A stretch of DNA of 56,148 nt from a virus (taxonomy: Duplodnaviria; Caudoviricetes): IMG/VR virus record IMGVR_UViG_3300046012_000429, positions 1 to 56,148 of that record, one strand, 5' to 3'. Positions 11,502 to 37,411 of the stretch are shown here, in pieces (the first letter of the stretch is position 1; every line of letters starts with the position of its first letter). The position numbers and the translations under genes are program-made. The notes under the pieces were generated by a model. That model saw only the letters and a list, made by a program, of their open reading frames with translations. It was not told where the DNA came from and ran no database searches.

Positions 11502-11522
11502 CGGTTAAGGCCACCTTAACTT

Positions 11523-18922: not shown

Positions 18923-18992
18923 CGGTGGTTCCTCTCGTGGTTGCTCCGGTTAAGGAAGCCTTAACCGCTGTGTGCCTCTCTAAGACGACGAG

Positions 18993-20781: not shown

Positions 20782-20828
20782 GCCAGGTTCTGACGGGGTG
20801 ATCTCAGCGGGTTAAGGTGGCCTTAACT

Positions 20829-21035: not shown

Positions 21036-21044
21036 CAATCACTC

Positions 21045-21560
21045 CTCTCTGGTTTGGTTTGGTAACCCCCCCCACCGGGATGGCGATCCCCGCGCTGCGT
21101 CTCATGCTCACCTGATCCCCAGTCGGGGCACGTCTGAGGGCGAACCCTCGACGGCAGACCTCGTGTCGGCTTGGCTGCGGGTGAGCCCGTGGCATCCGAC
21201 CTAGCCGCTCTCATGGCGTTCACGGACGCACGGCTCCAAGGCCCAGTGGGATGCGCGGATGGCCGAAGATCGGTACCCTTGGCACGTCGGCGTACTGGGA
21301 TTCTCCGCCGACCATGACCCCGGTCCGCGCTAACGGATGCGGGGTCAAAACCTGCAACGACCCTATCGCTGACGCGCCCTTACGTCGAGAGACCGTGGGT
21401 GTGGATACCATTGGTGCTGTCTTCCTTAGATCGGTCGGATAGTCGCCAGCCCTGACACGGCGAGACGGGTTGGCCTTGGTTCTCCCTCGGGTTTCCTTTC
21501 CCCGAGGTGCTACGACTCCTTCCTTTAGGTGGACTTGCGTGGTAGTTGGTTGCTCCTGCG
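21045..21560 (-). ncRNA. Candidate ~500-nt structured non-coding RNA, long leader or origin
   Basis: No ORF with phage-like codon usage; many hairpins, a UUCG-loop stem and a long-range CCAAGGCC/GGCCTTGG pair. Confidence 0.4.
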
Positions 21561-21564
21561 CTTG

Positions 21565-21590
21565 GAAGGCCCCCCTCGCGGGGGGCCTTC
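21565..21590 (-). terminator. GC-rich hairpin
   Basis: GAAGGCCCCCC-TCGC-GGGGGGCCTTC perfect 11-bp stem right after the stop at 21597. Confidence 0.6.
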
Positions 21591-21596
21591 CTGCTG

Positions 21597-21683
21597 TCAG
21601 GGCCACATGAAGATGATCACCAGGACCACGAACCCCAGGCCGAGGATGCCGACCAGGTTCCAGTCGATCCCGGGCCTACTCAC
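21597..21683 (-). CDS. 28-aa single-TM peptide
   Basis: MSRPGIDWNLVGILGLGFVVLVIIFMWP; overlaps the upstream stop. Confidence 0.5.
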   Translation of the reverse strand: MSRPGIDWNLVGILGLGFVVLVIIFMWP

Positions 21684-22032
21684 CCTCACCCTGCTGCTCG
21701 TCGGCACCCTCCAACTGGGCAGCCAGTCGCTCAGCCACCTGCTCAGCGATGTCGGGGTACTCGCTCAGCAGGTCGGTGATCTGGTCCAGCGCCTGCTCGG
21801 CCTTGCTCTTGCGCGGCGTCCACTCGATGCCTCGCTCGGCACACCGCTTCTGGTAGTAGCGATTGAACTCGTCCTTGTACTTCTCCCGCAGGTCCTTCTG
21901 GGCAGCGCCGTACGCCTGCGACATGAGCCTGTCCCGTTCGGACTGGGACTGCTGATCGTTCACTTGCTGCTCCTCATCAGTGGGCTCACCGATGATCTTC
22001 TCAACGTTCTTCTCCTCGGTGGAGGTTGTCAC
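21676..22032 (-). CDS. Hypothetical helical protein
   Basis: AAGGAGCAAC before GTG; first gene of promoter 22090-22118. Confidence 0.75.
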   Translation of the reverse strand: MTTSTEEKNVEKIIGEPTDEEQQVNDQQSQSERDRLMSQAYGAAQKDLREKYKDEFNRYYQKRCAERGIEWTPRKSKAEQALDQITDLLSEYPDIAEQVAERLAAQLEGADEQQGEGE

Positions 22033-22089
22033 GTTGCTCCTTCTGGTTAGGTGGTGGTGGTTAAGGATGCCTTAACTGGCCTTGTCTCC

Positions 22090-22118
22090 ATTATATCAGT
22101 GGAGAAAGGTTAGGTCGA
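22090..22118 (-). promoter_or_regulatory. SigA-type promoter
   Basis: TCGACC-17-TATAAT; palindrome 22060-22076 just downstream. Confidence 0.7.
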
Positions 22119-22121
22119 GCC

Positions 22122-22160
22122 TGACATAGAGCGGGCTCTCGACCAGCCCGCCCTATGTCA
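22122..22160 (-). terminator. Hairpin after the two-gene cassette
   Basis: TGACATAG.GCGGGCT / AGCCCGC.CTATGTCA. Confidence 0.6.
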
Positions 22161-22165
22161 AGTGG

Positions 22166-22657
22166 TCAGGCGGCGTGCCCGTTAGTGCTGCTGAGATCCC
22201 GCATCGCCTCGGCAAGGTAGAACTCGGCCTCCTCCACTCCCGTCAACCGCAAGGCACGGAGGCAGTCAGCGTAGGCAGCAGAGGTCCTCTTGGTCTCCCG
22301 AGTCACCCCGAACTCGGAGGCCCGCTTGCGCACCAGTAGCAGGGTGTGGGCTGCCCGGCGAGCAATGTCCCGGCCGCGCTCCCTCTCGTAGATGCGTGAC
22401 TCTGCGGCGTCGGGCTTCTTGTAGCACCACCGTCGCCCGTCTTTGCCGCTCCGGAAGGCATAGATCCTGTACCTCGGATCGTCCATCCGGTACCGACACC
22501 ACTCGATGATCTGGTAGGTCTTGGCCTTGCTCCAGTTCAGATCGTCGGCCATCGCGGAGAGGTAGTACCCGTAGTCAGGTTCCCTCTCGTAGAGTTCCTC
22601 CAGGTGTTCCATCAGCCTGTTGGCGTTGCGCTCCATCACCTCATGCCCGGTCTTCAT
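22166..22657 (-). CDS. Putative winged-helix protein
   Basis: LSAMADDLNWSKAKTYQIIEWCR HTH-like segment. Confidence 0.55.
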   Translation of the reverse strand: MKTGHEVMERNANRLMEHLEELYEREPDYGYYLSAMADDLNWSKAKTYQIIEWCRYRMDDPRYRIYAFRSGKDGRRWCYKKPDAAESRIYERERGRDIARRAAHTLLLVRKRASEFGVTRETKRTSAAYADCLRALRLTGVEEAEFYLAEAMRDLSSTNGHAA

Positions 22658-23576
22658 GGCGAAGAACCTCCCCGACCACGTCGTCGGTGAGGTTCATGTC
22701 GAGGATGTCGAGGTTGTCTCGGACCCGGCTCATGTGGTGCCGCACCTCGGCCAGGTCACCTGAAGTGAGGAACCCTCGGTACTCCGGCCACTCCCCAACC
22801 ACCACGGTGATGGTGTACGAGGCTTCGAGCAGCCGTTGCGGGATGTGCAGATGTGCCTTTGCCTGGTCCCCGAGTGCTGCGACCTCTCGACCATCGACAC
22901 CGTTCGCTAGTTCGTCGGCCGCGATCTGGTCGGCGACGATCTTCCGGTCGGCCCGCTCCCTGCCCTTCAGTGCGTCCGCCATGCCGAGGCGTTGCAGCGG
23001 GGTCATGGCTCTGACCACCGGACCCGGAGCAGTCCCGATGATCTGGACTGCCTCGGCTGCTGGGTCGTGACCCAGCAGTGCCAGTCGAACGGCACGACGG
23101 GCCGCTGGGGTCATCCCCTCGACCAGTTTCACTGCCTCGTCGGGTCGCTGGTTGATGGCCCGAGCCGCAGCCGGGACATCCCCCGTCGATGCTCCTGCCT
23201 GCTCACGGACTGCCCGCTTGGTCCGCTTGCCTGCCACGAACTCAGCCCACGGCATCCTCTTCCTGAACGCCTCGTAGTGAGCGGTCCACGATGCATCGGC
23301 CCACGTAATGGAATGGCTTGCCATTCCATTACCCTCAGCAACCCAGGCTGCGACCTGGCGGTACTCCTTCAGGGTGAGGACTTCATAGGACTCACCGGTC
23401 TCGGCAAGGATCTCCCTCGCTGCCTCCTTCAACTGGTCTTCCAGGTTGGGCTCACCTTTCGGTGGCCTTCCCCGACGAGGAGGTATCTCCAGATAGAGGG
23501 CCTCAGCCAGGTTCTTCTTCTCGGTGCCGATGTTGCGTGCTGCTTGCACGACACCGGGGTACTTGATGGTGCTCAT
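22641..23576 (-). CDS. Hypothetical protein with AT-hook-like RRGRPPK
   Basis: 311-aa ORF, RBS GAAGGA, more A/T third positions than neighbours. Confidence 0.7.
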   Translation of the reverse strand: MSTIKYPGVVQAARNIGTEKKNLAEALYLEIPPRRGRPPKGEPNLEDQLKEAAREILAETGESYEVLTLKEYRQVAAWVAEGNGMASHSITWADASWTAHYEAFRKRMPWAEFVAGKRTKRAVREQAGASTGDVPAAARAINQRPDEAVKLVEGMTPAARRAVRLALLGHDPAAEAVQIIGTAPGPVVRAMTPLQRLGMADALKGRERADRKIVADQIAADELANGVDGREVAALGDQAKAHLHIPQRLLEASYTITVVVGEWPEYRGFLTSGDLAEVRHHMSRVRDNLDILDMNLTDDVVGEVLRHEDRA

Positions 23577-23613
23577 GGTTGTGTTTCCTTCTGTTGTTGG
23601 TTGCTCCTGAAAG

Positions 23614-23654
23614 CCACCAACCCCCTCTCCCGGCGAGGAGAAAGGGGTTGGTGG
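23614..23654 (-). terminator. Hairpin after ssb
   Basis: CCACCAACCCC.TCTCC / GGAGA..GGGGTTGGTGG. Confidence 0.55.
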
Positions 23655-23679
23655 GTCGTGCTGTTAAGGCGGGCTTAAC

Positions 23680-24123
23680 TCAGAACGGAGGCTCATCCGT
23701 CTGAGGTCCGTACGCCTGCTCCACCGGTGCTCGGTAGGTCTGAGCAGCCGGTGCCGTACGCCGGGCCTCCCCGTGCGGGATGACCCGGAACTGCAGCGAC
23801 GCCGACACGGTGTCGGCGATCAGTGCCACCTTGGAGCGCTTGGCGCCGCTGTCGCGGTCCTCCCACTCCTCGGTGCGAATCTTCCCTGTCACGATGACCA
23901 GGTCACCCTTGACCACCGACTCGACCACGTTCTCGGCGAGTTGCTTGAAGCAGGTGACATCCATCCACAGGGTGTCGGCGTCTTCCCACTCGTCGGTCTG
24001 CTTGTTCAGCCTGCGGTCGGCGGCGACCAGTCGCATCCGGCAGATGGCGGTGCCCGACTGCGCGAACCGGAGTTCGGGGTCGGCCACCACCCTCCCTTCC
24101 ATCGTGATGCGTGGGAGTGGCAT
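23680..24123 (-). CDS. ssb: Single-stranded DNA-binding protein
   Basis: GRVVADPELRF..SG.A, KGD.VIVTG, acidic DEPPF C-terminus. Confidence 0.93.
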   Translation of the reverse strand: MPLPRITMEGRVVADPELRFAQSGTAICRMRLVAADRRLNKQTDEWEDADTLWMDVTCFKQLAENVVESVVKGDLVIVTGKIRTEEWEDRDSGAKRSKVALIADTVSASLQFRVIPHGEARRTAPAAQTYRAPVEQAYGPQTDEPPF

Positions 24124-24416
24124 CAACTTCCTTCCTCGTCGTTGGTTGCCCACCGGAGGTACATCGTGGCAGTCCTGGGTGGGCCGGGCTTGTTGTTGCG
24201 GGTGCGGACCTGCACCCCGTCCTGCACACCGGCCTTGAAGGCCGGACGCAGGGCCGCGATCTGCGCCTGCCGGATGGCGTTGACAATCGACAGCGGGCCG
24301 TCGTCGAAGACCTTGAGCCACTCGTTGGGGTGGTCCAGCAACTCGTTCGCTATCGCGTTCCAGTCGTAGCCGTGCCCCGTAGGTGGTGGTTCCTCCCACG
24401 ACATTCCTCCGGTCAT
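24123..24416 (-). CDS. Hypothetical protein
   Basis: W..IA.EL..HPNEW..V ... MYLRW; coupled to ssb. Confidence 0.7.
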   Translation of the reverse strand: MTGGMSWEEPPPTGHGYDWNAIANELLDHPNEWLKVFDDGPLSIVNAIRQAQIAALRPAFKAGVQDGVQVRTRNNKPGPPRTATMYLRWATNDEEGS

Positions 24417-24481
24417 CTGCTCTCCTCTCGTGCGAGGGAGAGCCGGGTGGTGGGGAGCACCGCCCGGCTCTCGTCTGTGGG

Positions 24482-24865
24482 CTAGCCGCGATAGCCGTTG
24501 GTGCGTGCGAACTCGGTGAGGCTGTCGATCCGCTCGGTCAGGCTGGTGAGCAACCGCTCGACCCGACCTATCGCCCCGGTGTCGGCGGACTCGGGCTCGT
24601 CCTCCTCGTCCTCCTCGTCCTCGACCACGGGATCGGGCACGGCCATCCCGGTCTCCGCGATGTAGGTCCGGACCTCCTCCTCGGAGGCGTCGTAGTCGAT
24701 CGCGTAGTCGATCAACTGCGACGCGATCTCCTTCTCCCGGGCCTCCAGCGCCTCGACCACCGGCCGGGCGTACGACACGTACGAGCCGTAGCCCGCCTGC
24801 TGCAGCGCCTGCTGGATGGTGTCGGAGATGGACGCGGACGTGGTGTCGTTCTGGGTGGTGCTCAT
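24482..24865 (-). CDS. Hypothetical acidic protein
   Basis: RBS AAAGGA; acidic linker; followed by hairpin 24439-24472. Confidence 0.7.
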   Translation of the reverse strand: MSTTQNDTTSASISDTIQQALQQAGYGSYVSYARPVVEALEAREKEIASQLIDYAIDYDASEEEVRTYIAETGMAVPDPVVEDEEDEEDEPESADTGAIGRVERLLTSLTERIDSLTEFARTNGYRG

Positions 24866-24948
24866 CTGAATGTGGTTCCTTTACTTGGGTGGTTGCTACT
24901 GAATGTGAGTGTAGTGGATGGACTGTACTTGTCTGTCGTTAAGGTGCC

Positions 24949-25374
24949 TTAACCTGTCTCCTTCCGTGGTCGTCCCCGGCCTCGGACCGGGATGTCTGTG
25001 ATGTCGAGACCCAGCCCCAGGACCAGGCCCCGGCTGCCCTCGACACGACCAAGACCACTCACCGCGTAGCCCTCCGGTGGCTGGTAGGTGGCGTTGATCT
25101 TGGTCAGGTAGGTGTGACCTCGGCGCGAGGAGATCGAGTAGAAGTCGTGCCGCACCATCCCGCAGCGGTCGCAGGTCAGCGACCGCTTGGCGTACACGTA
25201 GTTGCCCATGTGCGGGTAGGCACCCTCCTCGGCTCGTGAGTCCACGATCCGGAACGGGTCCGTGATCGTCATCTTGTGCTGGGTGGAACGACACTCCAGG
25301 TATTCCTCAGGCATGTTGGCCAAGTGCGCCAGGTAGGCATCTTCCGCGCTGGCTACTCTGCGCAGTTCTGTCAT
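24949..25374 (-). CDS. Zinc-ribbon protein with C-terminal AT-hook (RGRGRPRK)
   Basis: ECR...H, CDRCG, Y.PPEGY; stop codon lies inside palindrome 24938. Confidence 0.7.
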   Translation of the reverse strand: MTELRRVASAEDAYLAHLANMPEEYLECRSTQHKMTITDPFRIVDSRAEEGAYPHMGNYVYAKRSLTCDRCGMVRHDFYSISSRRGHTYLTKINATYQPPEGYAVSGLGRVEGSRGLVLGLGLDITDIPVRGRGRPRKETG

Positions 25375-25922
25375 TGCGTCTCTCTCTCCATCTGGGTGAT
25401 CGCCTGGTTCAGGTAGTCCCGGGCGTAGCGGATGTTGCTGCGGGCATCCCGGGTGGCACGCAGCATGCGGTCCATCTGCACCCGGGCTTCGTTCTCCTCC
25501 GATGCCTGGTAGGTCATCTGCTTGAACTGTTGGGTTCCCCAGTCCGGACCCTCTGCTCGGGTACAGGCCGAGAGCAGTTCCTCCTGGTTGACATCGCGCC
25601 ATTCGTAGAAGCGATCTCGTCGGAAGTAGGCGCAGCGGAAGATCCGGTCACCCTTCTCCCTCACCACCAGGTAGGCCCCGTCGCTAGACCACAGCGACGG
25701 GAGGCCGAACCAGTCCCCCTGGGTCGGTGGGGTGAAGTCGCCGGGCATGATCTTCTGCTCGCTCAGCAGCCCGGAGAAGAAGAACGGCGGCAGTCGGTGA
25801 CCGTCCTTGACCATCGCCCCGTCGGTGAACTGCCAGTGCTCGATCCGCCCCTCCATCACCACGGCCAGGTCGGTGCCGTCCTCCACTCCGTCGAGGGTGG
25901 TCAGTGGATTTGCCGTGCTCAC
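25371..25922 (-). CDS. Hypothetical protein
   Basis: GTGA coupling; phage-like codon usage. Confidence 0.65.
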   Translation of the reverse strand: MSTANPLTTLDGVEDGTDLAVVMEGRIEHWQFTDGAMVKDGHRLPPFFFSGLLSEQKIMPGDFTPPTQGDWFGLPSLWSSDGAYLVVREKGDRIFRCAYFRRDRFYEWRDVNQEELLSACTRAEGPDWGTQQFKQMTYQASEENEARVQMDRMLRATRDARSNIRYARDYLNQAITQMERETQ

Positions 25923-27016
25923 AGTGGCCACCCCGTCACCTGGTAGGTGAAGTAGTTGACCACCTGCCGCCTGACCTCGGCGTTCAGCGTCCGGTCGGCG
26001 CCGTTGATCCGTACGGTCACGCCGTCCGGCAGGTGAGCAGCCAGGAAGCCGTCGATCCGCCAGGCCATCGGCTCCTCGGGTGTCTGCACCACGACCATGT
26101 GCCCGTGGGTGTGGGCGCCGTCGTCGTCGTAGCCGTGCACCCGCCGGGTCTTGGAGATATTGCGGGCTGAGTCGTCCCGGATGTAGACGGCGAACGCCCG
26201 CCCGCCACGCCATCGCCACCACAGCAGCGTGCCCTCCGGCATCCGCGCGACCTCCTCCCGGTCGAGGGTGTCGCCGGGACCCTTGGTGGTGGCCCCGATG
26301 CCGGCGAAGACCTTGTCTGTGATGCCCAGCCCGGCCAGGCAGTTGTCGAACGTGCCGCACCAGGAGTTGTTCCGCTGGTACGTCTTGCCCACCCGGTAGG
26401 CGCGGAGTGCGATCCGGGTCAGGGTCTCGTCGTCGGCCACCGGCTCAGGGGCTGGTGGGGTGTAGCCGGGGATGGAGTGGATGGTCAGCGGGTGCCCCGC
26501 TGGCCAGTCCCGGGTGCCGAGGATGCGGGCCAGTGTCCCGGTCCCGGTCTTCTCGAACACGTTCAGCAACTTCGGCAGGTCCGGGTGACCGGCGTAGAGC
26601 AGCGTCCCGTTCGGCAGCAGGTCGACGTCGGTCCGGCTGGAAACGATTCCACCCTCGGTGAACACCGGGTTGGATGCCCCGAACGCGGCACACATCTCGA
26701 CCACTGGCGCGATGGCGACGCCGGAACGATCGGCGGCACCCAGGGCGGAGTCTCGCAGCCGCCAGCGGAACGCCTCGACCGACTCCAGCGGGATGTCGAT
26801 GGACTCAGCCTCTGCTTTGTACAGCCAGTTCGGGCCGTTCAGGTAGTAGGAGTCCATCCCAGCCCGGCCACTCTGCTCGACCCAGGTCCGAGGTGCGGTC
26901 TGCTCGAAGATCTGGCCGGTGGGGTGACCGATCCGAATGGCGCCGCCGACCGGTATCAGGTCACCGTGATGGATGAGGTCGGGGAACGGCTCCCCGGGCT
27001 TGACTTGTCTGATCAC
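25919..27016 (-). CDS. Hypothetical protein with internal repeated domain
   Basis: VDLLPNGTLL / VARMPEGTLL units; RBS AAAGGAGCAACC. Confidence 0.75.
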   Translation of the reverse strand: MIRQVKPGEPFPDLIHHGDLIPVGGAIRIGHPTGQIFEQTAPRTWVEQSGRAGMDSYYLNGPNWLYKAEAESIDIPLESVEAFRWRLRDSALGAADRSGVAIAPVVEMCAAFGASNPVFTEGGIVSSRTDVDLLPNGTLLYAGHPDLPKLLNVFEKTGTGTLARILGTRDWPAGHPLTIHSIPGYTPPAPEPVADDETLTRIALRAYRVGKTYQRNNSWCGTFDNCLAGLGITDKVFAGIGATTKGPGDTLDREEVARMPEGTLLWWRWRGGRAFAVYIRDDSARNISKTRRVHGYDDDGAHTHGHMVVVQTPEEPMAWRIDGFLAAHLPDGVTVRINGADRTLNAEVRRQVVNYFTYQVTGWPL

Positions 27017-27053
27017 TGCTGGTTGCTCCTTTGCTGGTTAAGGTTGCCTTAAC

Positions 27054-27479
27054 TCATTCCTCGATGACACTGACGCTGAGCGAGTACGGCACCCCGTTGT
27101 TCGCGACCCCGTTGTCTCCCTGGAACGGGAGGCCAGGCGCGAAGTAGCGCGAGACCGACAACTCCCTGACCTGCTCGATGGCCTGTTCCCAGGTCCGGTC
27201 AGAGACGGTGATGGTCTGCCGGTAGGTGACCTCGATGTCCACCTCCTGCCTTCTCACCCGGGGCAGCAGCCCGGCCTGCTCAGCCACCTCGTCGTAGACC
27301 TCACACAGGTCACGCTCGTCGGCAGCCGAGCCGAGCACCTCCGAAGCATGGGCCACGAAGTCCTCGTGCTTCTTGACTGCAGCGACGGTCTCGGCACGGG
27401 CTTGCGCCAACTGCCGCTCCAACTCCGCGATCCTGCCCGCCTGTTCGGTGGGTGGCTTGTCGTCGGTCGTGATGGTCAT
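27054..27479 (-). CDS. Hypothetical early protein
   Basis: First gene of promoter 27612-27640; RBS GAGAGGA. Confidence 0.7.
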   Translation of the reverse strand: MTITTDDKPPTEQAGRIAELERQLAQARAETVAAVKKHEDFVAHASEVLGSAADERDLCEVYDEVAEQAGLLPRVRRQEVDIEVTYRQTITVSDRTWEQAIEQVRELSVSRYFAPGLPFQGDNGVANNGVPYSLSVSVIEE

Positions 27480-27527
27480 GCGATTCCTCTCGGTTCTGTC
27501 GGCTCAGCCACGGCGGCTGAGACGCGT

Positions 27528-27559
27528 CGGAGGGCAGGGGAATCACTCCCTGCCCTCCG
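27528..27559 (-). other. Leader hairpin
   Basis: CGGAGGGCAGGG / CCCTGCCCTCCG, between palindrome 27561 and the GCCGU-loop hairpin 27503. Confidence 0.5.
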
Positions 27560-27611
27560 GGTTAAGGTGCCTTAACTGTCATTGTCTGGGCATTACTTAA
27601 CCGTTAACTAC

Positions 27612-27643
27612 ATTATACCACTTGACGAGTCTTAAGTCAAGTG
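27612..27643 (-). promoter_or_regulatory. Near-consensus SigA promoter overlapped by an inverted repeat
   Basis: TTGACT-17-TATAAT; CACTTGAC-N9-GTCAAGTG. Confidence 0.85.
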
Positions 27644-27831
27644 ATGTCAGGCCGATCACTGACATCGGCAGCCCACTCCATCGGAGCGAACCCACCATGG
27701 CTGAGCCACTCGTCGAGCGCGGAGAAGTTCTCGGCGAACTCGCGTTCCTCGACCGTGTGACCACGACCGGCACTCTTGGTGACCTGCTCGACCAGGGCCC
27801 GCAGCCGGGCCAGCAGTACTTCGGGATCCAT
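27637..27831 (-). CDS. Hypothetical protein
   Basis: MDPEVLL..LR ... F.ALDEWLSHGGFAP..W. Confidence 0.65.
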   Translation of the reverse strand: MDPEVLLARLRALVEQVTKSAGRGHTVEEREFAENFSALDEWLSHGGFAPMEWAADVSDRPDIT

Positions 27832-28046
27832 CACTCGCCCTCCTTCGTTGACGGCTCGTCGGGCAGCGGCGCGACAGCCGCCCTCTGGACCAACTCCCAC
27901 ACCGAGTCGTCGGTGACCGCCCGAGCCAGCACCATTGCGGCCAGGTAGCGCTGCCGGTCTGGGTCCAGGAAGACGACCCCGACATCGGCGATCTCGAACA
28001 TCCGCTTGACCCGCTCCGGTGTCATCTCGATGTGGCGGTCGCTCAT
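27831..28046 (-). CDS. Hypothetical protein
   Basis: Coupled ORF with RBS GAGGAGGAG. Confidence 0.6.
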   Translation of the reverse strand: MSDRHIEMTPERVKRMFEIADVGVVFLDPDRQRYLAAMVLARAVTDDSVWELVQRAAVAPLPDEPSTKEGE

Positions 28047-28393
28047 GACTCCTCCTCACCGACGGCAGGGTCGAGCCGTCTGCGCTGGGTCGAGGTCATC
28101 TGCGCCCAGGCCCAGCACTGACGCTGTGCCATCCGCCAGTCCAGCCCGAACACCTCGTCGTCGGGACGCTTGGTGGTGTCGTTGACCGCCAGGGAGGTGA
28201 GTGGCGGCCACCCGTGGTCTTCGAACAGTGGACGCAGGTAGGCCAGCAGGTCATCCAGCGAACGGGTCATCCGCTGGTAGTCCACAGCCCAGGCCAGGTT
28301 GGACAGCGTGATGGTGGCCTGACCTACGGCCACTGCCTTGAGCACTGCCACCACCCGCTGTTCGTAGTTGATCCGTGGTGGGACGACTGTCAT
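28043..28393 (-). CDS. Hypothetical protein, possible HTH
   Basis: TITLSNLA ... GWPPLTSLAVN..T.RP motif. Confidence 0.6.
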   Translation of the reverse strand: MTVVPPRINYEQRVVAVLKAVAVGQATITLSNLAWAVDYQRMTRSLDDLLAYLRPLFEDHGWPPLTSLAVNDTTKRPDDEVFGLDWRMAQRQCWAWAQMTSTQRRRLDPAVGEEES

Positions 28394-28623
28394 GGTGTCG
28401 GCTCCGCGACCTTGACCACCGCGAACGGGTCGCTGCTCAGCAGGATCAGGCTGCGGTTGCCTGCGGTCTTGGGGTCCCAGGCGACCAGGATCTGGTCGGG
28501 GTGGCCGTGACCGTCGATCACCTGGATGACGGTGCCGCGCGCACCGACCGGCATCGGGTCGGGATCGTTGGGCATGGTGCCGGTCATCACGATCTCCTGA
28601 CCGGCGGTGACGAGTTGGTTCAT
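28390..28623 (-). CDS. DUF4314-like protein
   Basis: M.NDPDP.P.G.RGTV..V......QI.V.WD.....SL.L...D.F. Confidence 0.65.
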   Translation of the reverse strand: MNQLVTAGQEIVMTGTMPNDPDPMPVGARGTVIQVIDGHGHPDQILVAWDPKTAGNRSLILLSSDPFAVVKVAEPTP

Positions 28624-28843
28624 TGGTTGTTCCCTTCGTTGTCCGACGACACGGTGTCGTCGTGGTTAAGGCGGCCTAAACTCTGGCCGTCGCAGCGGTA
28701 CCACTGCTGCTGCTTGCGGTAGAACCAGGTGTGCGGCAGGTGCCGTGCCCGGGTAGTGCAGTGCCAGGTGAGCATGGCTGCTCCTGTGCGTGAAGCACCA
28801 CCACCCACGCCCTGACGACGGAGGTGGTGGTGAGGAGACCTGG

Positions 28844-29116
28844 TCATCGGCTGCTGACCAACGGCGTCACCGTTCCCCCCGTCTTCCACCGCCTGGTCGG
28901 CAGGTCGTCGTGGGCTCGCCTGAGGATGGTCTGTGCGGCCACCAACAGGTTGATCTCGGCCCAGCGAGCACGCTCCGCCTCGGCCTCGCGCTGCTCTCGC
29001 AGCCGTTGCTGCTTGCGGCTCTCGCCTCGCGTACGCCTGCCGAGCACCAGCCGCATCGACCATGACCCGATGTGCAGGGCGACCACGAAGCCGGTGTCGG
29101 CGACCTGGCCGGTCAC
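28844..29116 (-). CDS. Hypothetical protein
   Basis: GTGA-coupled ORF. Confidence 0.45.
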   Translation of the reverse strand: MTGQVADTGFVVALHIGSWSMRLVLGRRTRGESRKQQRLREQREAEAERARWAEINLLVAAQTILRRAHDDLPTRRWKTGGTVTPLVSSR

Positions 29117-29298
29117 CGGGTCACCCCAACCGCTCTGTAGAACTTGGCCCGGTCGAACCTCGGGTTGGTCCGGGCGAAGTAGTCCGCCATCGAGTACGCG
29201 ATGTTGACTACCACCCGGGAGGCCAACTCGTTGTGCCGGTGGGTGGCCAACTCCCCGGCGAGGATGGCTGCGATGGCTTGGTAGTTCCGGGTGGTCAT
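29113..29298 (-). CDS. Small conserved phage protein
   Basis: MT..NY..IA..L ... NPRFDRAKF..A. Confidence 0.65.
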   Translation of the reverse strand: MTTRNYQAIAAILAGELATHRHNELASRVVVNIAYSMADYFARTNPRFDRAKFYRAVGVTR

Positions 29299-29639
29299 GC
29301 CGCCACCCACTCCCAGGTGCAGGCGTACTCGGTATGTACGGTCTCGCCTGACTTGACGGTGAAGGTGGCGAAGGTGGTGCGACCGTTGACGGTTGCCTCG
29401 CACACCCTGGTATTGCCTTGCCAGGTGCCAGGCTTGATCTTCTTCGCCACGTGGTTGCTGGCTACGTAGGTACCGCTCCCCTCGAATGTGGTCATTGCTG
29501 GCGCACTGAAGTGCGCGACGATGGCGAGGATGATGAGCAAGCCGACAAGCCCCGGCGGTAGGGCTAGCAGCCCGCCGCAACCGAGGCCCTGACTTATCCG
29601 CAGTGGTCCGGCGCTGACGCCGATGCTTGCGTTGGGCAT
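29295..29639 (-). CDS. Membrane-anchored hypothetical protein
   Basis: TM segment GLVGLLIILAIVA; RBS GAAAGGAAG. Confidence 0.6.
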   Translation of the reverse strand: MPNASIGVSAGPLRISQGLGCGGLLALPPGLVGLLIILAIVAHFSAPAMTTFEGSGTYVASNHVAKKIKPGTWQGNTRVCEATVNGRTTFATFTVKSGETVHTEYACTWEWVAA

Positions 29640-29709
29640 GGTTGCCCACTTCCTTTCGGTTGTCCCGACCACGGCGGTCGGGAGGTTAAGGCCGCCTTAA
29701 CGGCGGTAG

Positions 29710-29738
29710 GCCCGGAGGGGGAAGACCCCCCTCCGGGC
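29710..29738 (-). terminator. Hairpin after gene 29753
   Basis: GCCCGGAGGGGG / CCCCCTCCGGGC. Confidence 0.55.
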
Positions 29739-29752
29739 GTTGGACTACGTTC

Positions 29753-29971
29753 TCACTGAACGACGCGGGTCACCACGTTGTCGGTGTCGACCTCGACGAC
29801 GGCGTACCAGCGGTGCGGCTGCGGGTAGTGCGGGCCCTCGACGTTGACCCGGCCGTTACGCACGGTGAGGTCGAACACCCCGCCGGGCTGGAAGACAGTG
29901 ACGCGGTCGCCCGCCTTGACCGCTTCCTTGAGCGCCTTCTTGGTCTGGTAGTTGGGGTTGACGTAGGGCAT
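29753..29971 (-). CDS. Small conserved phage protein
   Basis: NY.TKKALKEAV..G...EGPHYP.PH.WYA.V. Confidence 0.7.
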   Translation of the reverse strand: MPYVNPNYQTKKALKEAVKAGDRVTVFQPGGVFDLTVRNGRVNVEGPHYPQPHRWYAVVEVDTDNVVTRVVQ

Positions 29972-30165
29972 CAGTCGACCTTCGTCCAGTGGTCGGTGCT
30001 GACTGTGACCTCGGCGGCGGGCACGTTGGCGTAGACCGGGAAGGACCCGTCGTGCCAGTGACCGGCGACCATCCGCTCACCGCGATCAGTGGTGAACAAG
30101 GTGGCCTCGGTCGAGAAACCGTAGACCGGGTGGTGAGCCACGGTCGGTGAGGTGAGGCTGTACAC
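29971..30165 (-). CDS. Hypothetical protein
   Basis: Coupled ORF. Confidence 0.5.
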   Translation of the reverse strand: MYSLTSPTVAHHPVYGFSTEATLFTTDRGERMVAGHWHDGSFPVYANVPAAEVTVSTDHWTKVD

Positions 30166-30168
30166 GGC

Positions 30169-30609
30169 TCAGTCCCCACAGATTCCGTCGGTGTACTCGC
30201 CGAGGTAGATGTCTCGGCCCGGCACCTTGAGCCTGCTCACCGGTAGCCAGGGCTGGACGTTGTGCAGACCACCCTTGCCGGTCTTGCCCTGGTAGGCGTG
30301 CTTGAGGTCGGCCAGGCAGCCGTTCTGCCATGACCCGAACTCGGCCAGGTAGGCGCGCTTGGCGTTGGCCCGCTCGGCCTTACCGGCGTGGCGCCACGCC
30401 TTGCTCGGGCCGAGGTGGGTGACGTAGGTGTGCTCGGCCTTGGCCACCTTGTGCGGGTGAGCCTTGGCCTGGTGGCTGGTCGGGCCCATCGGCGCGGCGT
30501 GGGCGACCTCGGAGGAGATGCCGATGCCGCCGAATGCAGACGCTGCTCCGATGGCCAGGACGGCGAACCCGGTAGCGAGTGGCCGCAGAACGTTGCGGTA
30601 GTTGGACAT
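30169..30609 (-). CDS. Predicted secreted protein
   Basis: Signal-peptide-like N-terminus ending AHA; RBS AAGGAGCAACC; first gene of promoter 30681. Confidence 0.65.
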   Translation of the reverse strand: MSNYRNVLRPLATGFAVLAIGAASAFGGIGISSEVAHAAPMGPTSHQAKAHPHKVAKAEHTYVTHLGPSKAWRHAGKAERANAKRAYLAEFGSWQNGCLADLKHAYQGKTGKGGLHNVQPWLPVSRLKVPGRDIYLGEYTDGICGD

Positions 30610-30680
30610 GGATGGTTGCTCCTTGCTGGTTAAGGTTGCCTTAACCTAGGTTGACTGGACAGACTTCTACTTACTACTCC

Positions 30681-30712
30681 ATTATACCACTTGACCATGC
30701 TTAAGTCAAGTG
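30681..30712 (-). promoter_or_regulatory. Near-consensus SigA promoter overlapped by an inverted repeat
   Basis: TTGACT-17-TATAAT; CACTTGAC-N9-GTCAAGTG; nearly identical to 27612-27643. Confidence 0.85.
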
Positions 30713-30715
30713 AGG

Positions 30716-30949
30716 TCAAGCCGTTGACCGGAAGGTCAGCACGCGTTCGGTGAGCGCGGTGCGCCAGCGTCTGGTCCGTCGACACGACCCACAGGTGACG
30801 GCGAACGGGTCAGGTGACCAGGCGTGGGCGTGGCGGCAGCGCGACCCGGCGTGGTGGATGGGTCGGGCCCGGGGTGGTCGGGGCCGCCGTCGCCTGTCGA
30901 CCAGCCCGGTGATGACCGGGCCGGTGACTGGCTCGTCGAGGGTGGACAT
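30716..30949 (-). CDS. Small basic zinc-binding protein
   Basis: H...C ... VTCGSCRRT; GGAGCAACCAACC before ATG. Confidence 0.5.
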   Translation of the reverse strand: MSTLDEPVTGPVITGLVDRRRRPRPPRARPIHHAGSRCRHAHAWSPDPFAVTCGSCRRTRRWRTALTERVLTFRSTA

Positions 30950-31106
30950 TGGTTGGTTGCTCCATTCGTTGATCGTTGACCGCACGTGGACCGTGACGCG
31001 TGGATGGTGGGTGGTGACGCGATCACCGTGACGCGATGTGTGCGTCACGCTCGGGAGTTAAGGTCCCTTAACCGCCGAGAGGGCCGGAGTCCCCGTGGGA
31101 CCCGGC

Positions 31107-31286
31107 CTAGTTCGGTAGGCGGTCGTTGTGGGTCACCGTGCCGTCGGAATGGTCTGCGCAGTAGTGCTGCGCGTCGCTGGCATCCCAGCAGGTGACGGAG
31201 GTCTCGACCGGCGCGCATGCGCTCGCTCCGAGTGTGGCCAGGACGGCCACGCCTGCCACGATGGCGCGGCGGGTGAAGGTGTGCAT
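31107..31286 (-). CDS. Small lipoprotein
   Basis: Signal peptide with lipobox-like LGASAC; RBS GAAAGG. Confidence 0.6.
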   Translation of the reverse strand: MHTFTRRAIVAGVAVLATLGASACAPVETSVTCWDASDAQHYCADHSDGTVTHNDRLPN

Positions 31287-31365
31287 GGTGGAACCTTTCG
31301 TTACGGGTGAGCCACGGCGGCTCACACCTAGCGGGTCACACGCGGTTAGTCGTGTGGCCTGCTAG

Positions 31366-31389
31366 GTGCCCGGTCCTTCGACCGGGCAC
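31366..31389 (-). terminator. Hairpin after gene 31399
   Basis: GTGCCCGGTC-GAAG-GACCGGGCAC perfect stem; second hairpin at 31328-31366. Confidence 0.6.
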
Positions 31390-31398
31390 CCGTCCCTG

Positions 31399-32211
31399 CT
31401 ACTTGCCTGCCTTGCTCCGGTTCACCCGACCGTGCAACGCCTGACCCGCCCGACGGATCTCGGGAGTGCTCGCCTCCCCCTTGGCTTGGATCAGGTTGCG
31501 CAACTCGAGCAACCCGGCCCAATCTTCGGCAGTCAGGGTGCCGACCTTCCGCACTGCCTCCAGCGCGTCGCGGATGGCCTGCCCGTTCGGGGTCAGGTCA
31601 CCTGTCTTGGCTTCCTGCGCCGAACGCTTGTCACCGGTAGCGTCCTTGCCAGCAGACGACTGCACCGCTTTGGTGCCCTTCGACTTCGTGCTGGGAGTCT
31701 TGGACTCGGCCCACACCTTCTCGACAGCCTCCCGGGTGAGCCCTGCCTTCCGCGCCTCGGTAAACGCGGGGGAGTTCTGGACACTGGACGTGATGGCCCA
31801 TAGTTCCTCGGTAGGGCTCACCTCCAGATCGAACGCAATCTGCGCCGACCGGCCCAACTGAATCCCGCGCGGCTCGGAGATGCCGAACTCTTTACAGAAC
31901 TCAGAGTTCGTCATGGTGCCGTTGGGGTTGGCCTTGGACTTGACCAAGGCGCGGTGTGCGTAGGCGCCAACGTAGGTCGCGTTTGTGCCTGCCCTGTCCT
32001 TGATTTGCTCCAGAGCGTGGTAGAGACCCTTGACCTTCGGGAGGTCCTTGGTCGCGATACCAGCGGCCACGGTCTGCGGGTTGAGCGACCCCAGCAGGCG
32101 CTGTTGAGCGGGGGTGAGACCGGTTAAGGAAGCCTTAACCACGACCTGACTGGGGGCAGAGTCCTCCTGAGGATCGAGGACGGGACCTGTTACTGCGGTT
32201 GCCTCAGACAT
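31399..32211 (-). CDS. First early gene; possible HTH regulator
   Basis: MTNSEFCKEFGISEPRGIQL HTH-like segment; palindrome 32123 lies inside its coding region. Confidence 0.65.
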   Translation of the reverse strand: MSEATAVTGPVLDPQEDSAPSQVVVKASLTGLTPAQQRLLGSLNPQTVAAGIATKDLPKVKGLYHALEQIKDRAGTNATYVGAYAHRALVKSKANPNGTMTNSEFCKEFGISEPRGIQLGRSAQIAFDLEVSPTEELWAITSSVQNSPAFTEARKAGLTREAVEKVWAESKTPSTKSKGTKAVQSSAGKDATGDKRSAQEAKTGDLTPNGQAIRDALEAVRKVGTLTAEDWAGLLELRNLIQAKGEASTPEIRRAGQALHGRVNRSKAGK

Positions 32212-32308
32212 GAGGCACCTACCTTTCTGCGCGGGTTCCCCCGCGCGAGGGTGCGGGGCGGGGCCACGGCGGCCCCTGGTTTCCCTGCATCCCTCACTTA
32301 CAAGACTT

Positions 32309-32337
32309 ACTTTACCAGGTTTGTCCACCTAAGTCAA
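32309..32337 (-). promoter_or_regulatory. SigA-type promoter heading the minus arm
   Basis: TTGACT-17-TAAAGT. Confidence 0.75.
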
Positions 32338-32547
32338 GCCTTGCAAAGTGCCTCTGACTAGGGGAGATAGAGTTAAGGGGCCTTAATGTGAGCAGGATCA
32401 CAAGGCCCCCCACCCCCCGGAGTCGCGCGCGCGGCCCCCTAAGGGGGTGCTAGCCACCTCTGTACCCATCCAGGATTTTGAATCAGCCCTGTGTCAAGTG
32501 GAGCAAACGGGCCTCGGCGGGTACCGGGGATTTCGGATCGGACGCGC

Positions 32548-32582
32548 GTAACAGACCCTGTTACAGTGCTACAGTGTGTTAC
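32548..32582 (+). promoter_or_regulatory. Leaderless promoter and operator of the RHH gene
   Basis: GTAACAG-ACC-CTGTTAC palindrome, extra TGTTAC half-site, TACAGT 7 nt before ATG 32583. Confidence 0.55.
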
Positions 32583-32765
32583 ATGACCGAGAGCACTCCT
32601 GAGGGCCGGAGGCGGGACGTGTACGTGCCCCTGTGGCTCAGCCAACTGGGGGCAGCCGTCCTGGATGAGAAGAGGGGAACGTGGAGCAGGAGCGAGTACA
32701 TCAGGCAGGCTCTGAACAAGGCGGTGAGCAGCGGCCTGGTTGGGCCCAAGCCCGGGAAGTTCTAA
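32583..32765 (+). CDS. Ribbon-helix-helix (CopG/Arc-like) regulator
   Basis: VPLWLS.....LD..RG..SRSEYIRQAL. Confidence 0.75.
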   Translation: MTESTPEGRRRDVYVPLWLSQLGAAVLDEKRGTWSRSEYIRQALNKAVSSGLVGPKPGKF

Positions 32766-32936
32766 CAACCGGGCATGCAAGTGCACGAAGGCCGGGGTCA
32801 GCACCACCAAGGGGATGAGCGGGTTGCCCCTGTGCCGCTGCGGTCACCTCATGGCCGTCCACGAGACACACGGGATCGACTTCAACAGCCAGATCGGTCC
32901 CGGGCACCCCTGGACACCAACCCCGAGGTTCGCGGC

Positions 32937-33086
32937 ATGAGCAACAACTGCCCCACCTGCCACCCGGCACCCGAGACACCGAAGAAGGAGCGACCAGTGA
33001 CCAAGACCGAGGGGTGTGAGCACCTCAACACCAAGACGAAGTTCGGCATCCGGATCTGTCTCGACTGCCACCAGGTGGTGTCGTGA
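32937..33086 (+). CDS. Small Cys-rich protein
   Basis: CPTCH, CEH, CLDC. Confidence 0.5.
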   Translation: MSNNCPTCHPAPETPKKERPVTKTEGCEHLNTKTKFGIRICLDCHQVVS

Positions 33087-33310
33087 TGAGCACCCAGTGG
33101 CCGACCCGGCTGAGGGTGGACATGGAGGGCTCCTCCCGCGAGGACCTGATCACCCGGCTCGACGCTCAGGCGGCGCAGTTCTTCGGGGCCATCCCGTACC
33201 GGCTGACCGGTGAGGTCGAGGCTGAGGTCGGGGAGCGGACGCAGGACGTGGGCGGCAAGATGACGCTGCTCACCTGGACCGGCTACGCCTACTTCGAGAC
33301 CCTGCCGTGA
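33083..33310 (+). CDS. Hypothetical protein
   Basis: Coupled ORF. Confidence 0.6.
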   Translation: MMSTQWPTRLRVDMEGSSREDLITRLDAQAAQFFGAIPYRLTGEVEAEVGERTQDVGGKMTLLTWTGYAYFETLP

Positions 33311-33667
33311 GTACCGTCACCGTCCGGGTGCTGATCGAGGCCACCTGGCATGGCGAGGACCGTACTCAGGTGATCGAGGCCGGGAGCGTGGTACTGCTGG
33401 GTCCTCAGAACCTGCCCGAGGTGAGAGAACTGCTGCACGACATCGCGGATGCGTGGCCACAGGACGGGGAGTTGCCGTGAGGCTCGCGGAGTTCCTTGCG
33501 GGGCAGCAGGAGGACCCCAACCTGTTCTGGCGACTGTCCAGCGGTGACCACCAGAACCTGCTTGAGGAGGCGTGCGACCAACTCGACGCTGTGCGGCGCC
33601 AGTTGGTCGAGGTCAACGGGATTGCCTTCGCACTCCAGGTCCTCGACGACAAAGAGGAGGACGAACG

Positions 33668-36055: not shown

Positions 36056-37411
36056 TCAGTCAGTCCACGCCTGCAGTGCGGCATAGGCGGGCTTCGTGGT
36101 GCCGTTGGTGCGGATGATTCCGAACGTGGGCTCATTGCCGGTGGTGCCCGTGTCGAAGCCGGTGTACCACATCATCGGACCGGTCGCGCCGCGTGCTGTG
36201 CCCTGGTCGTACCAGCCGGTGAACAGGTCGGTCAGCCACTGTCCCTGGTTGGCGTCACCCACATCGGCGCGCGCGGTCGGGAAGCCCTGCTCGGTCGTCC
36301 AGATCTTCTTGCCTCGGTCACCGTTCGCGTTCATCGTGGCGCGGACGTTGGTGACGTTGCCCATGTTGCCACCGGTGAAGCAACCCGATGAGGACTTGCA
36401 CCAAGCCGAGTCGGCGTACGGGTGGACGGCGACACCGTCCCAGTTGCCCTTCGCCAGCGGGTACAGGTCGGCGTACCACAGGTCCTGTTTGAGCCGTCCC
36501 GAGTCGTTCCACGCCGTCCCACCGGTCAGCACGTAGGCATCCGGGTCAGCAGCCTTGACGGCCGGGTAGGTCGCCTTGATCAGGTCCGCGTACCGGGCGA
36601 CGTTCGGCGAGGTCCAGAACGTGGCCAGGTTCGGCTCGTTCCAGATCTCCCAGGCGGCGACGTTGCTGCCCTTGAAGTGGGTCACCGCAGCCGCCGCGAA
36701 GTTGGCGAACGCGGTCCGCTGCGCGGTCGTGGTCGGCCCGACATCCCACGACGAGGCAGACCAGGCTGGCAGCGTGGAGACGCACCAGATGACCTTGAGT
36801 CCGTTCGCCTTCGCCGCTGACTGGATGCGGTCGGGAGCCGTCCAGTTGCGGCTGCCCTGCGACGTCTCGATGTAGACGGCGGGCAGATCCATCCGGAACC
36901 ACTTCACACCGGTCGCGGCGAGTTTGGCCATGCGGGAGTTGATCGTGCTGGCCGACAGACCAGACCATAGGTGATAGGGCTCCGCGATGCCGGACATCTC
37001 CGCGTGCGATGCAACCGCCGTGCTTGACGGTGACGGGGTGGCTGACCGCGTGGGGGTGATCGTCGGTGTGGGGGTGACGCTGGGCGTCACCGACGCTGAA
37101 GGGGTGGCAGATCGACTCGCGGTGACGCTGGGCGCCGGGGAAGGCGCATCCAGCGCTTCACGAATCGCCCGCAGTTCCGCATCCTGCCGGTCAAGACGAC
37201 AGTCCAGGTAGCGGTAGTTCTCGTAGCCGCTCACCGAACTGCTGCTGGTGTCCACGTACTGGGCGCATGGATCTTGGGGGGTAGCGATGGCGACGGTGCC
37301 GCCACCAACCAAGGCACCGGCACCAACGAGCGCGAACACGGCAAGTAGCCGCCTACGTGCAGGAGCGGTTCGGGGCTGACGGGGAGCGATCTTCCACATG
37401 TGGTGCTCCAA
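36056..37411 (-). CDS. Secreted or anchored clan GH-A glycoside hydrolase (GH5/GH39-like)
   Basis: Signal/TM segment, S/T/P linker, WEIWNEPN acid-base, AVHPY, IWTTEQG nucleophile, FGI......KPAY. Confidence 0.85.
   Translation of the reverse strand: MEHHMWKIAPRQPRTAPARRRLLAVFALVGAGALVGGGTVAIATPQDPCAQYVDTSSSSVSGYENYRYLDCRLDRQDAELRAIREALDAPSPAPSVTASRSATPSASVTPSVTPTPTITPTRSATPSPSSTAVASHAEMSGIAEPYHLWSGLSASTINSRMAKLAATGVKWFRMDLPAVYIETSQGSRNWTAPDRIQSAAKANGLKVIWCVSTLPAWSASSWDVGPTTTAQRTAFANFAAAAVTHFKGSNVAAWEIWNEPNLATFWTSPNVARYADLIKATYPAVKAADPDAYVLTGGTAWNDSGRLKQDLWYADLYPLAKGNWDGVAVHPYADSAWCKSSSGCFTGGNMGNVTNVRATMNANGDRGKKIWTTEQGFPTARADVGDANQGQWLTDLFTGWYDQGTARGATGPMMWYTGFDTGTTGNEPTFGIIRTNGTTKPAYAALQAWTD

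Follow-up and report, generated by a model that had tools for sequence, protein, structure and literature searches.

The virus record IMGVR_UViG_3300046012_000429 of IMG/VR is a 56,148-bp stretch of DNA, complete or near-complete (94%), which we analysed over its whole length and call the window. Its plus strand carries the structural genes, and a block of minus-strand genes runs leftwards from ~32.3 kb to 8.4 kb, beginning with early ORFans and continuing with genes for SSB, a primase-helicase, a Rad52-like protein and others. The subject of this paper is a small hairpin that recurs in the leaders of the early genes of this block. Its stem differs from copy to copy whereas its 5-nt loop, R-C-C-R-U (R, purine) when read on the minus strand, stays nearly constant, and it looks like an uncatalogued tag on early messages. 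Loop-specific hairpins on the early messages of phages are classic control devices, and phages of high-G+C bacteria have so far provided hardly any examples.

The window has a G+C content of 65.7%, no tRNA was found in it, and the sole sequencing run that contains it is a DNA run of a soil metagenome. Searches of GenBank phages returned no match, either at the DNA level with the window or with a 270-aa early protein. The terminase shares 44-49% identity with its counterparts in Arthrobacter, Microbacterium and Curtobacterium phages; of the 368 records that it matched, Gordonia phages make up the largest group. Because of the 66% G+C and these terminase matches to actinobacterial phages, an actinobacterial host is likely. 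A contig scan with a primase profile gave distant matches only (at most 40% identity), with no prophage relative and no clue to the host.

Hairpins in the early leaders

The original prediction, made from the letters of the window, had listed five such hairpins upstream of minus-strand starts. All five were found at the positions it gave, with perfect stems of 6-8 bp, and each precedes one of the minus-strand ATG codons at 27479, 28623, 29639, 31286 and 32211. The nearest hairpin edge lies 20-48 nt from the start codon, and neither the start codon nor the Shine–Dalgarno sequence (SD) is overlapped. On the plus strand the loop reads ACGGC in four of the five and ACGGT in one; below, stems and loops are given as minus-strand RNA, with scores in bits against a covariance model of the window copies. 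The first hairpin, h1 (32260..32276; GGGGCC-GCCGU-GGCCCC; 29.1 bits, -12.4 kcal/mol), belongs to the 5' untranslated region of gene 31399-32211, the first one of the leftward early block, and stands 48 nt from the ATG at 32211 and ~27 nt past the predicted start of a promoter whose -10 element ends at 32309; the start codon at 32211 is backed by a 58%-identical homologue (P0002, on a 1.7-kb contig) with the same first residues. Downstream of the stop codon of this gene come two other hairpins and then h2 (31307..31325; GUGAGCC-GCCGU-GGCUCAC; 31.2 bits, -11.3 kcal/mol), 20 nt from the ATG at 31286. Further along the same strand lie h3 (29663..29683; UCCCGACC-GCCGU-GGUCGGGA; 30.5 bits, -14.6 kcal/mol), 23 nt from the ATG at 29639, and h4 (28644..28662; CGACGAC-ACCGU-GUCGUCG; 25.9 bits, -10.2 kcal/mol), 20 nt from the ATG at 28623, whose loop RNAfold closes with an A-U pair to leave a CCG triloop. 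The last leader copy, h5 (27503..27521; CUCAGCC-GCCGU-GGCUGAG; 31.2 bits), ends 23 nt before the ATG at 27479.

An exhaustive scan added two minus-strand copies that were absent from the original prediction, and these are weak members of the set: conserved codons account for most of the stem sequence, and the hairpin is not preserved in homologues. One of them, h6 (26980..26996; CGGGGA-GCCGU-UCCCCG; 28.5 bits), occupies codons 7-12 of gene 25919-27016, and its stem is largely set by conserved Gly-Glu ... Phe-Pro codons; at this site two relatives introduced below have the loops ACUGU (G006) and GCAGU (L269, read from the protein). The other, h7 (23800..23818; CGCCGAC-ACCGU-GUCGGCG; 28.0 bits), lies inside the SSB gene. 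At the h7 site L269 encodes the same residues and has 5 of 7 stem pairs by hand count, and no hairpin was found there in G006, G007 or G009. The remaining five of the seven copies are non-coding, in a region (26900-32330) of which ~16% is non-coding by a hand tally over open reading frames (ORFs); the suspicion that such hairpins might be equally frequent in coding DNA was thus not borne out.

Chance as the origin of the window copies is excluded. In the window, 51 hairpins combine a perfect stem of 6 bp or more with a loop of 5 nt; seven have the loop ACGGY and none its reverse complement, all seven reading RCCGU on the minus strand. Over 200 dinucleotide shuffles the number of such hairpins averaged 0.155 and never exceeded 2, and the commonest single loop per shuffle, whatever its sequence, reached a mean of 1.38 and a maximum of 3. 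The density of 125 per Mb in the window compares with ~4 per Mb in other loci (12 hairpins in 3.0 Mb); a further 1.05 Mb of loci held four sense and seven antisense hairpins, and a Streptomyces genome (8.5 Mb) gave three matches of at least 25 bits among 150 candidates scored. A covariance model and an Rfam search had been proposed with the original prediction. The model scored its seven members at 25.9-31.2 bits and the next-best site of the window at 15.6, with no eighth copy found there. No Rfam family matched, either over the whole window at gathering scores or within 23500-32500 at E<=1. Searches covering open papers revealed no account of an RCCGU-loop motif, and no relevant account of conserved stem-loops in actinobacteriophages was found in the open literature.

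The signal resides in the combination of loop and flanking complementarity, since the 7-mer C-RCCGT-G on its own occurs 25 times on the plus and 26 times on the minus strand and is neither enriched nor strand-biased; a bare DNA sequence motif was dropped on this ground. The flanks of the copies do not align outside the loop and the SD context, and ~9-11 nt are common to the copies. Recent duplication of a single element was also dropped, because the stems differ. When six stretches of the window were folded in context, all six minimum-free-energy (MFE) folds contained the hairpin. Stabilities range from -9.5 to -14.6 kcal/mol, and in the leader folds the hairpin forms an independent unit beside its neighbours. 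The 9 nt 3' of each of the seven stems hold 0-2 U, and there is no U-tract.

A typical leader runs from a stop codon through a large G+C-rich hairpin without a U-tract, a palindrome, the RCCGU hairpin and a purine-rich SD to the ATG. The palindrome, GTTAAGG-N2-3-CCTTAAC, has 15 perfect copies in the window, with 0 expected, mostly just 5' of an SD (for example at 1886-1902, 11504-11520, 18949-18965, 27037-27053, 30629-30645 and 52329-52345). Two of the hairpins had been said to abut it. This is so for h3, which a perfect copy with a 3-nt spacer (29685..29701) adjoins with a 1-nt gap, as context and not as part of the hairpin; the copy beside h4 (~28666-28681) is imperfect, with two mismatches. 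A scan of IMG/VR for this palindrome found it in seven unrelated stretches only, with 1-3 sites per record, and it looks like a phage-specific operator or a stoperator-like system. Large minus-strand hairpins without a U-tract precede h2 (~31365-31391) and h3 (~29711-29737), and another large G+C-rich one lies just upstream of h5 (~27528..27559, minus strand; from MFE folds, coordinates read by eye), so that the h5 leader shows, in order, a promoter (27612-27640), a palindrome (27561-27576), the large hairpin and h5. At h4 the hairpin follows a large hairpin after a 42-codon ORF. This Trp/Cys-rich ORF (28676-28804, minus strand), which sits between the two, is kept at L269 4117-4254 (81.7% DNA identity over 109 nt) and, because of this conservation, probably encodes a real micro-protein.

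Extended -10 sites of the sigma-70 kind are predicted on the minus strand with -10 ends at 32309, 30681, 27612 and 22090, and a promoter scan of 20500-33500 placed four of its five sites on this strand (shuffle mean, 1.3). The one predicted to serve the h5 leader (27612..27640) reads TTGACT-17-TATAAT with a TG extension, and similar minus-strand promoters are predicted at 30681-30709 and 32309-32337. Promoter-like sites precede only h1 and h5 (2 of the 5 leader copies), and the leader of the promoter ending at 30681 has the palindrome and lacks the RCCGU hairpin. The claim that the hairpins occur only in the region served by the strong promoters therefore holds roughly, with the exception of this middle-promoter leader (gene 30169-30609). 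Across the -35 of two early promoters (27612-27650 and 30681-30720, minus strand) we noted an inverted repeat, CACTTGAC-N9-GTCAAGTG, followed by TATAAT. It is conserved in L269 (1958-1982 and 5403-5427), has a variant in G006, and may be a second regulator-binding site.

Recurrence in related phages

Single-protein searches of IMG/VR and a metagenome scan with an alignment of the 270-aa protein revealed no close relative. A search with the primase-helicase led to a family of roughly 58-62-kb phages in metagenomes, the closer relatives having a primase 76-89% identical to that of the window on contigs of up to 58 kb. Homologue profiles yielded the complete IMG/VR genomes G006, G007 and G009 and the 3.3-kb contig L098 (primase 86% identical), the 365-aa early protein encoded by gene 25919-27016 yielded the 8-kb IMG/VR contig L269, and a small conserved protein yielded G011 and G012. 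The five complete genomes (G006, G007, G009, G011 and G012) share the structural and replication genes of the window, and G006 is the closest of them overall, with terminase and portal at 82-87% identity. The early ORFan region has almost no homologues in the relatives; the L269 homologue of gene 25919-27016 is 65% identical.

The hairpin recurs on the sense strand of the early regions of four related records, with three copies in L269, three in G012, one in G011 and one in L098, and the original statement that the stems vary while the loop stays constant extends to these. The first L269 copy (CUCAGCC-GCCAU-GGCUGAG) belongs to the homologue of the h3 gene, 27 nt upstream of it. When the two leaders are aligned, the SD region and first codons are near-identical, the stems have nothing in common, the loops disagree at a single position, and the palindrome of the window is replaced in place by that of L269, TCUCAG-N4-CUGAGA. 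The second (CUGGACC-GCCGU-GGUCCAG) adjoins the L269 palindrome 22 nt before another ATG. The third belongs to a leader orthologous to that of h5 and has a new stem, with GCCGU held within an 8-nt loop. Conservation of the loop, whose absence from homologous leaders would have told against the original prediction, is therefore found to a large extent in the two orthologous leaders available, with the qualification that the h3 ortholog has GCCAU and the h5 ortholog the enlarged loop. The layout of the h5 leader (promoter, palindrome, large hairpin, hairpin) is matched in L269 and similar in G011 and G012.

In G012 the three sense-strand copies fall within 9 kb of the early region. A weak homologue of the first early gene has one in its leader, the homologue of the 365-aa gene is preceded by another at a distance of 22 nt, and a third occupies codons 6-11 of another gene, comparable to the window copies that lie inside genes. 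The G011 copy lies in a promoter-proximal leader, that of L098 adjoins the L098 palindrome just after the primase gene, and a distant contig, L050, has one copy after a stop codon. The hairpin is present in the MFE fold of six of the seven leaders of relatives. A wider search with model R2 over 78 loci carrying the g72 protein (1.03 Mb) returned only training members at 24 bits or more, the next match scoring 22.8 on the opposite strand.

Over 13 aligned copies, the loop never varies at C2, C3 and U5; a purine, G or A, occupies position 1, and position 4 holds G in 12 copies and A in the other. The stem cells pair in 97.8% of cases versus 56% in shuffles, and 37 cells are changed on both sides versus 11.4, a value that none of 500 shuffles reaches. 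This covariation count is partly circular, because the copies were found by pairing, and the enrichment counts and orthologous leaders weigh more. On these grounds the hairpin exists as a non-random element that keeps to a single strand and is retained, with covarying stems, in related phages.

The palindromes themselves differ from phage to phage. G007 has GTTCAC-TSA-GTGAAC ~40 times, and L269 TCTCAG-N4-CTGAGA, L098 TTAGG-CAA-CCTAA and G009 CTAGT-W-ACTAG are the counterparts elsewhere; between orthologous leaders the palindrome is swapped. Such differences suggest a fast-evolving phage DNA-binding protein. The element can be traced over five related genomes in which the stem turns over, the adjoining operator is swapped and the loop stays, and turnover of the stem and swapping of the operator around a constant loop are the signature of a shared reader.

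Two further hairpins deserve mention beside these. In G009, a leader hairpin at 21294-21312 (in L186 and L021) has the complementary sequence ACGGC as its sense loop, 24 nt before a start codon; it may be due to chance, as ~0.5 such hairpins are expected per genome. In L098, the GCCGU hairpin is followed at 2510-2570 by two hairpins that have the same stem, GGCGAC/GUCGCC, and different 4-nt loops.

The RNA, its reader and possible outcomes

All window copies and the copies listed for the relatives lie on the sense strand of early genes. An internal G.U pair occurs in three sense-strand copies and the mirror A.C mismatch in none, and the L098 hairpin folds at -11.9 kcal/mol on the sense strand versus -8.6 on the opposite strand. 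In this small sample, these three observations favour an RNA structure over a DNA structure. The claim that the hairpins are real, selected and strand-specific stands (seven versus 0.155 in shuffles, recurrence in relatives, three G.U versus no A.C), and it is highly probable that they are RNA-level elements with a loop that is read.

As to the reader, Pfam searches of 39 different ORFs (10 of them also against PHROGs) returned no RNA-binding, N-like, coat-like, nuclease, NusG or RNA-polymerase family. Two small Arg-rich ORFs are present, and no family match of an early ORF suggests an N protein. Phyletic patterns gave no candidate either: no ORF of the window is found in the hairpin-bearing G011 and G012 and absent from G006, G007 and G009. 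Because the loop is constant while the palindromes differ, no ORF tracks the hairpin and no reader family was found, a host-encoded reader is the simpler assumption and most likely correct, an early ORFan protein being the other candidate. Pairing of the loop with 16S rRNA was weighed and dropped, as to our knowledge there is no convincing match.

We infer action as RNA, a host factor as reader and cleavage as the outcome, and tentatively favour the following scheme above other complete ones. A cis-acting hairpin on leftward early transcripts, with a free stem of 6-9 bp and an R-C-C-R-U loop nearly always closed by C-G, would usually precede the ribosome-binding site, at a distance of 16-27 nt from the start codon, and often adjoin the palindrome on its 3' side. 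Its loop would be read by a trans-acting factor common to phages with different operators, most likely host-encoded, and be cut by an endonuclease of the RNase E type, either for processing or as an entry to decay. Such a cut would separate each early cistron from the upstream RNA. The preceding message would then end in the large hairpin, capped by it on the 3' side, and the next cistron would have a defined 5' end ~25-35 nt before its start codon. The early RNA of T7 is punctuated by RNase III and the early messages of T4 are marked by RegB, and the proposed cut would be functionally similar to both.

This scheme draws on the loop itself. All 13 aligned loops fit the mycobacterial RNase E motif R-N-|C-N-U, and the variation at positions 1 and 4 falls only where that motif is free. 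RNase E is reported to recognize RN|CNU in mycobacteria, with four in-vitro sites all at this motif (PMC10641625), and among 3,344 mycobacterial cleavage sites C is at +1 in >90%, with enrichment in 5' untranslated regions and between co-transcribed genes (PMC6448022). The shortest RNase E substrate is reported to be ~27 nt long (bioRxiv 10.64898/2026.04.06.716707). If the reader is indeed RNase E, nature would have supplied in this hairpin a portable signal for the processing of actinobacterial mRNAs, and it would offer a direct test of the enzyme's choice of sites, which the cited papers leave open.

Several points weigh against RNase E. According to the passages cited, the mycobacterial enzyme cuts regions of low secondary structure (PMC10641625, PMC6448022) and its in-vitro cuts did not fall where the RNA was most loop-like (PMC10641625). 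Since known sites are weakly structured, a 5-nt loop on a stable stem is an atypical substrate: the motif is unpaired in the window, but as the loop of a stem of -9.5 to -14.6 kcal/mol. Positions 2 and 4, unlike those of mycobacterial sites, are almost fixed, and C2 (13/13) and G4 (12/13) exceed what RN|CNU needs, which indicates a more specific reader. The fit is merely suggestive, because one random pentamer in 32 matches RNCNU. The specificity of the enzyme is documented for mycobacteria only, and the host of the window phage is merely suggested to be actinobacterial. Eight of the 12 intergenic copies lie just 5' of the SD, a position that suits translational control equally. Finally, G006, G007 and G009 have no convincing sense-strand copy (model R1 gives at most 19 bits on G006-G009); a relaxed scan found none in G006 and one weak sense-strand match in G007 (ACCAU loop, one G.U). 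The element is dispensable, since G006, the closest relative overall, is without a copy.

A wider reading, which is possible and to which we attach somewhat less weight, is that the RCCRU-loop hairpin is the address tag of an unrecognised post-transcriptional regulon, read by a dedicated regulator or nuclease of host or ORFan origin. Each early cistron would then have its own switch between a phage-specific DNA operator and the ribosome-binding site, and DNA and RNA control side by side would form a two-layer module whose parts are exchanged and re-targeted independently. Should the reader be a new protein, a new early-gene regulon would be defined, and in either case the element is a compact, mutable handle of ~20 nt with possible use for expression control in actinobacteria. 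The T4 RegB system offers a parallel: GGAG marks in early intergenic regions lead to inactivation and degradation of early messages, by a phage-encoded nuclease that needs ribosomal protein S1, cuts within the SD and is inhibited by secondary structure (PMC3014915). As far as that account goes, RegB sites and the hairpins are both short, sequence-defined marks at early translation initiation regions with few copies in coding sequence. The mark in the window differs in that it precedes the SD and consists of a structured loop, and the ORFs scanned include no recognisable phage nuclease.

Somewhat more doubtful is a translational operator, in which an RNA-binding protein would sit on the loop, 3-8 nt upstream of the SD, and block or help 30S binding; the early gene set would then be under one post-transcriptional switch. 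By a hand tally, 16-27 nt separate the hairpin from the start codon in eight of the 12 intergenic cases, which is the 5' edge of the ribosome-covered region. A degenerate nuclease motif would not call for so constant a loop, and every copy falls within the early, ORFan-rich stretch of the leftward unit. However, four intergenic copies are 43-66 nt from the start, two or three lie within coding sequence, and the SD and AUG are never within the hairpin, unlike in operators of the MS2 type. Neither an RNA-binding family among the 39 ORFs nor a phage ORF that tracks the presence or absence of the hairpin was found. The sites of another phage regulator, T4 RegA, are described as unstructured. The original prediction had pointed to lambda boxB and to the coat operators of MS2, and neither analogy agrees with the anatomy: a genome has 5-7 copies, the SD and start codon are uncovered, and no N-like or coat-like family was detected in the 39 ORFs scanned.

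It is unlikely that the hairpin is a structural insulator or 5' stabiliser that has no specific reader and frees the ribosome-binding site or blocks 5'-to-3' decay. Several features would suit this role, namely the fixed position just 5' of the SD, the moderate stability (-9.5 to -14.6 kcal/mol), independent folding beside other hairpins and dispensability in G006, G007 and G009, and the loop with its C-G closing pair may be kept for good folding. One particular loop is not needed for folding, though, because neighbouring hairpins of the same leaders have unrelated loops, and nearest-neighbour energies give an RCCRU loop no bonus. Stability alone is also unlikely to have kept three invariant and two purine-only loop positions in five phages despite full turnover of the stem.

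An antitermination site of the boxB/nut or LoaP-hairpin kind, by which the polymerase would read through the large G+C-rich hairpins, is improbable. In its favour, h2 and h3 come after a large terminator-like hairpin, h5 after a large hairpin in its own leader and h4 likewise; h1 is ~27 nt past a promoter, and L269, G011 and G012 have similar arrangements of promoter, large hairpin and hairpin. Lambda-type boxB is an early-transcript hairpin whose 5-nt purine-rich loop is read by the arginine-rich N protein, with one site per operon, and processive antitermination requires one loading site per operon. The likeness lies in a small hairpin on early transcripts, probably read in its loop rather than its stem, and near promoters in the case of h1 and h5. 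The window has 5-7 copies instead of one promoter-proximal site per operon (of seven, only h1 and h5 are promoter-proximal), most of them intercistronic beside an SD, its loop is RCCRU, its stems differ between copies of one genome, and no N-like or NusG-like protein was found in the ORFs scanned; nor was a boxA partner identified, although no search was aimed at one. The large hairpins moreover have no U-tract. Mycobacterial RNA polymerase is reported to need a U-tract to terminate and not to be stopped in vitro by U-less structures (PMC3993855), so there is possibly nothing to antiterminate.

A signal at the level of DNA is more improbable still, whether as a cruciform or single-strand hairpin for a promoter, primase or nuclease or as a linker for the shuffling of early ORFans as cassettes. 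The hairpins flank ORFans in a region almost without homologues in relatives, their positions vary between phages, and the G009 leader hairpin has the complementary loop in the sense strand. PeSL cassettes of T4-type phages, which combine promoter, stem-loop and SD, are reported to recombine; their stem-loops terminate and have no fixed loop (PMC2839356). Like these, the hairpins belong to composite intergenic modules (hairpin, sometimes promoter, SD) that flank ORFans at varying positions in a plastic early region. The PeSL pattern of a strong sigma-70-like promoter in each cassette and ~100 bp of conserved sequence is, however, not seen: two of the five copies follow a promoter-like site, and only the loop and SD context are shared. 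A common stretch of ~9-11 nt is too short for homologous exchange, the copies are confined to one strand, G.U pairs are tolerated where A.C pairs are not, and the ORFs scanned gave no match to a phage RNA polymerase or to a family of hairpin-binding transposases. Repeats in one orientation at the starts of non-structural genes are also known from Cluster K phages, where SAS is a conserved 13-bp sequence 3-7 bp before the start and ESAS consists of 17-bp inverted repeats around a variable spacer, for which the authors found little support for RNA pairing in the text cited (PMC3203893). The window does not show conserved arms and a variable spacer; it is rather the mirror image of ESAS, with free arms, a fixed loop and pairing maintained by compensating changes.

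Intrinsic terminators or attenuators of leftward transcription, for which G+C-rich hairpins in intergenic positions might be taken, are very improbable, given that 0-2 U follow within 9 nt of each of the seven stems, none was picked up by a terminator scan, two belong to leaders that begin at strong promoter-like sites, a conserved loop is not a property of terminators, and the mycobacterial polymerase is reported to require a U-tract (PMC3993855).

Other genes and repeats

Elsewhere in the window, 36056-37411 encodes a GH5 cellulase-like protein and 12713-13771 a protein with a polyketide-cyclase/SRPBCC domain, neither of which has a homologue in the five relatives compared, and 38385-40595 encodes a 736-aa fibre protein of the BclA-C/C1q-like kind. 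In the early block, 29753-29971 (minus strand) encodes a 72-aa protein with the motif VEGPHYP..PHRWYA, the family of which is encoded in at least 160 IMG/VR stretches. In L269 (1-7968), the contig ends repeat each other (29-45 = 7898-7914) and, in contrast to the window, an early promoter directly follows SSB; judging from the contig, the assembly would be circular or permuted, or else the order of genes differs. Lastly, four direct repeats of CGCGTCAC are found at ~30975-31045 (minus strand), within the leader that precedes ORF 30716-30949, which encodes 77 aa rich in Arg and Cys and has a weak homologue in G011.

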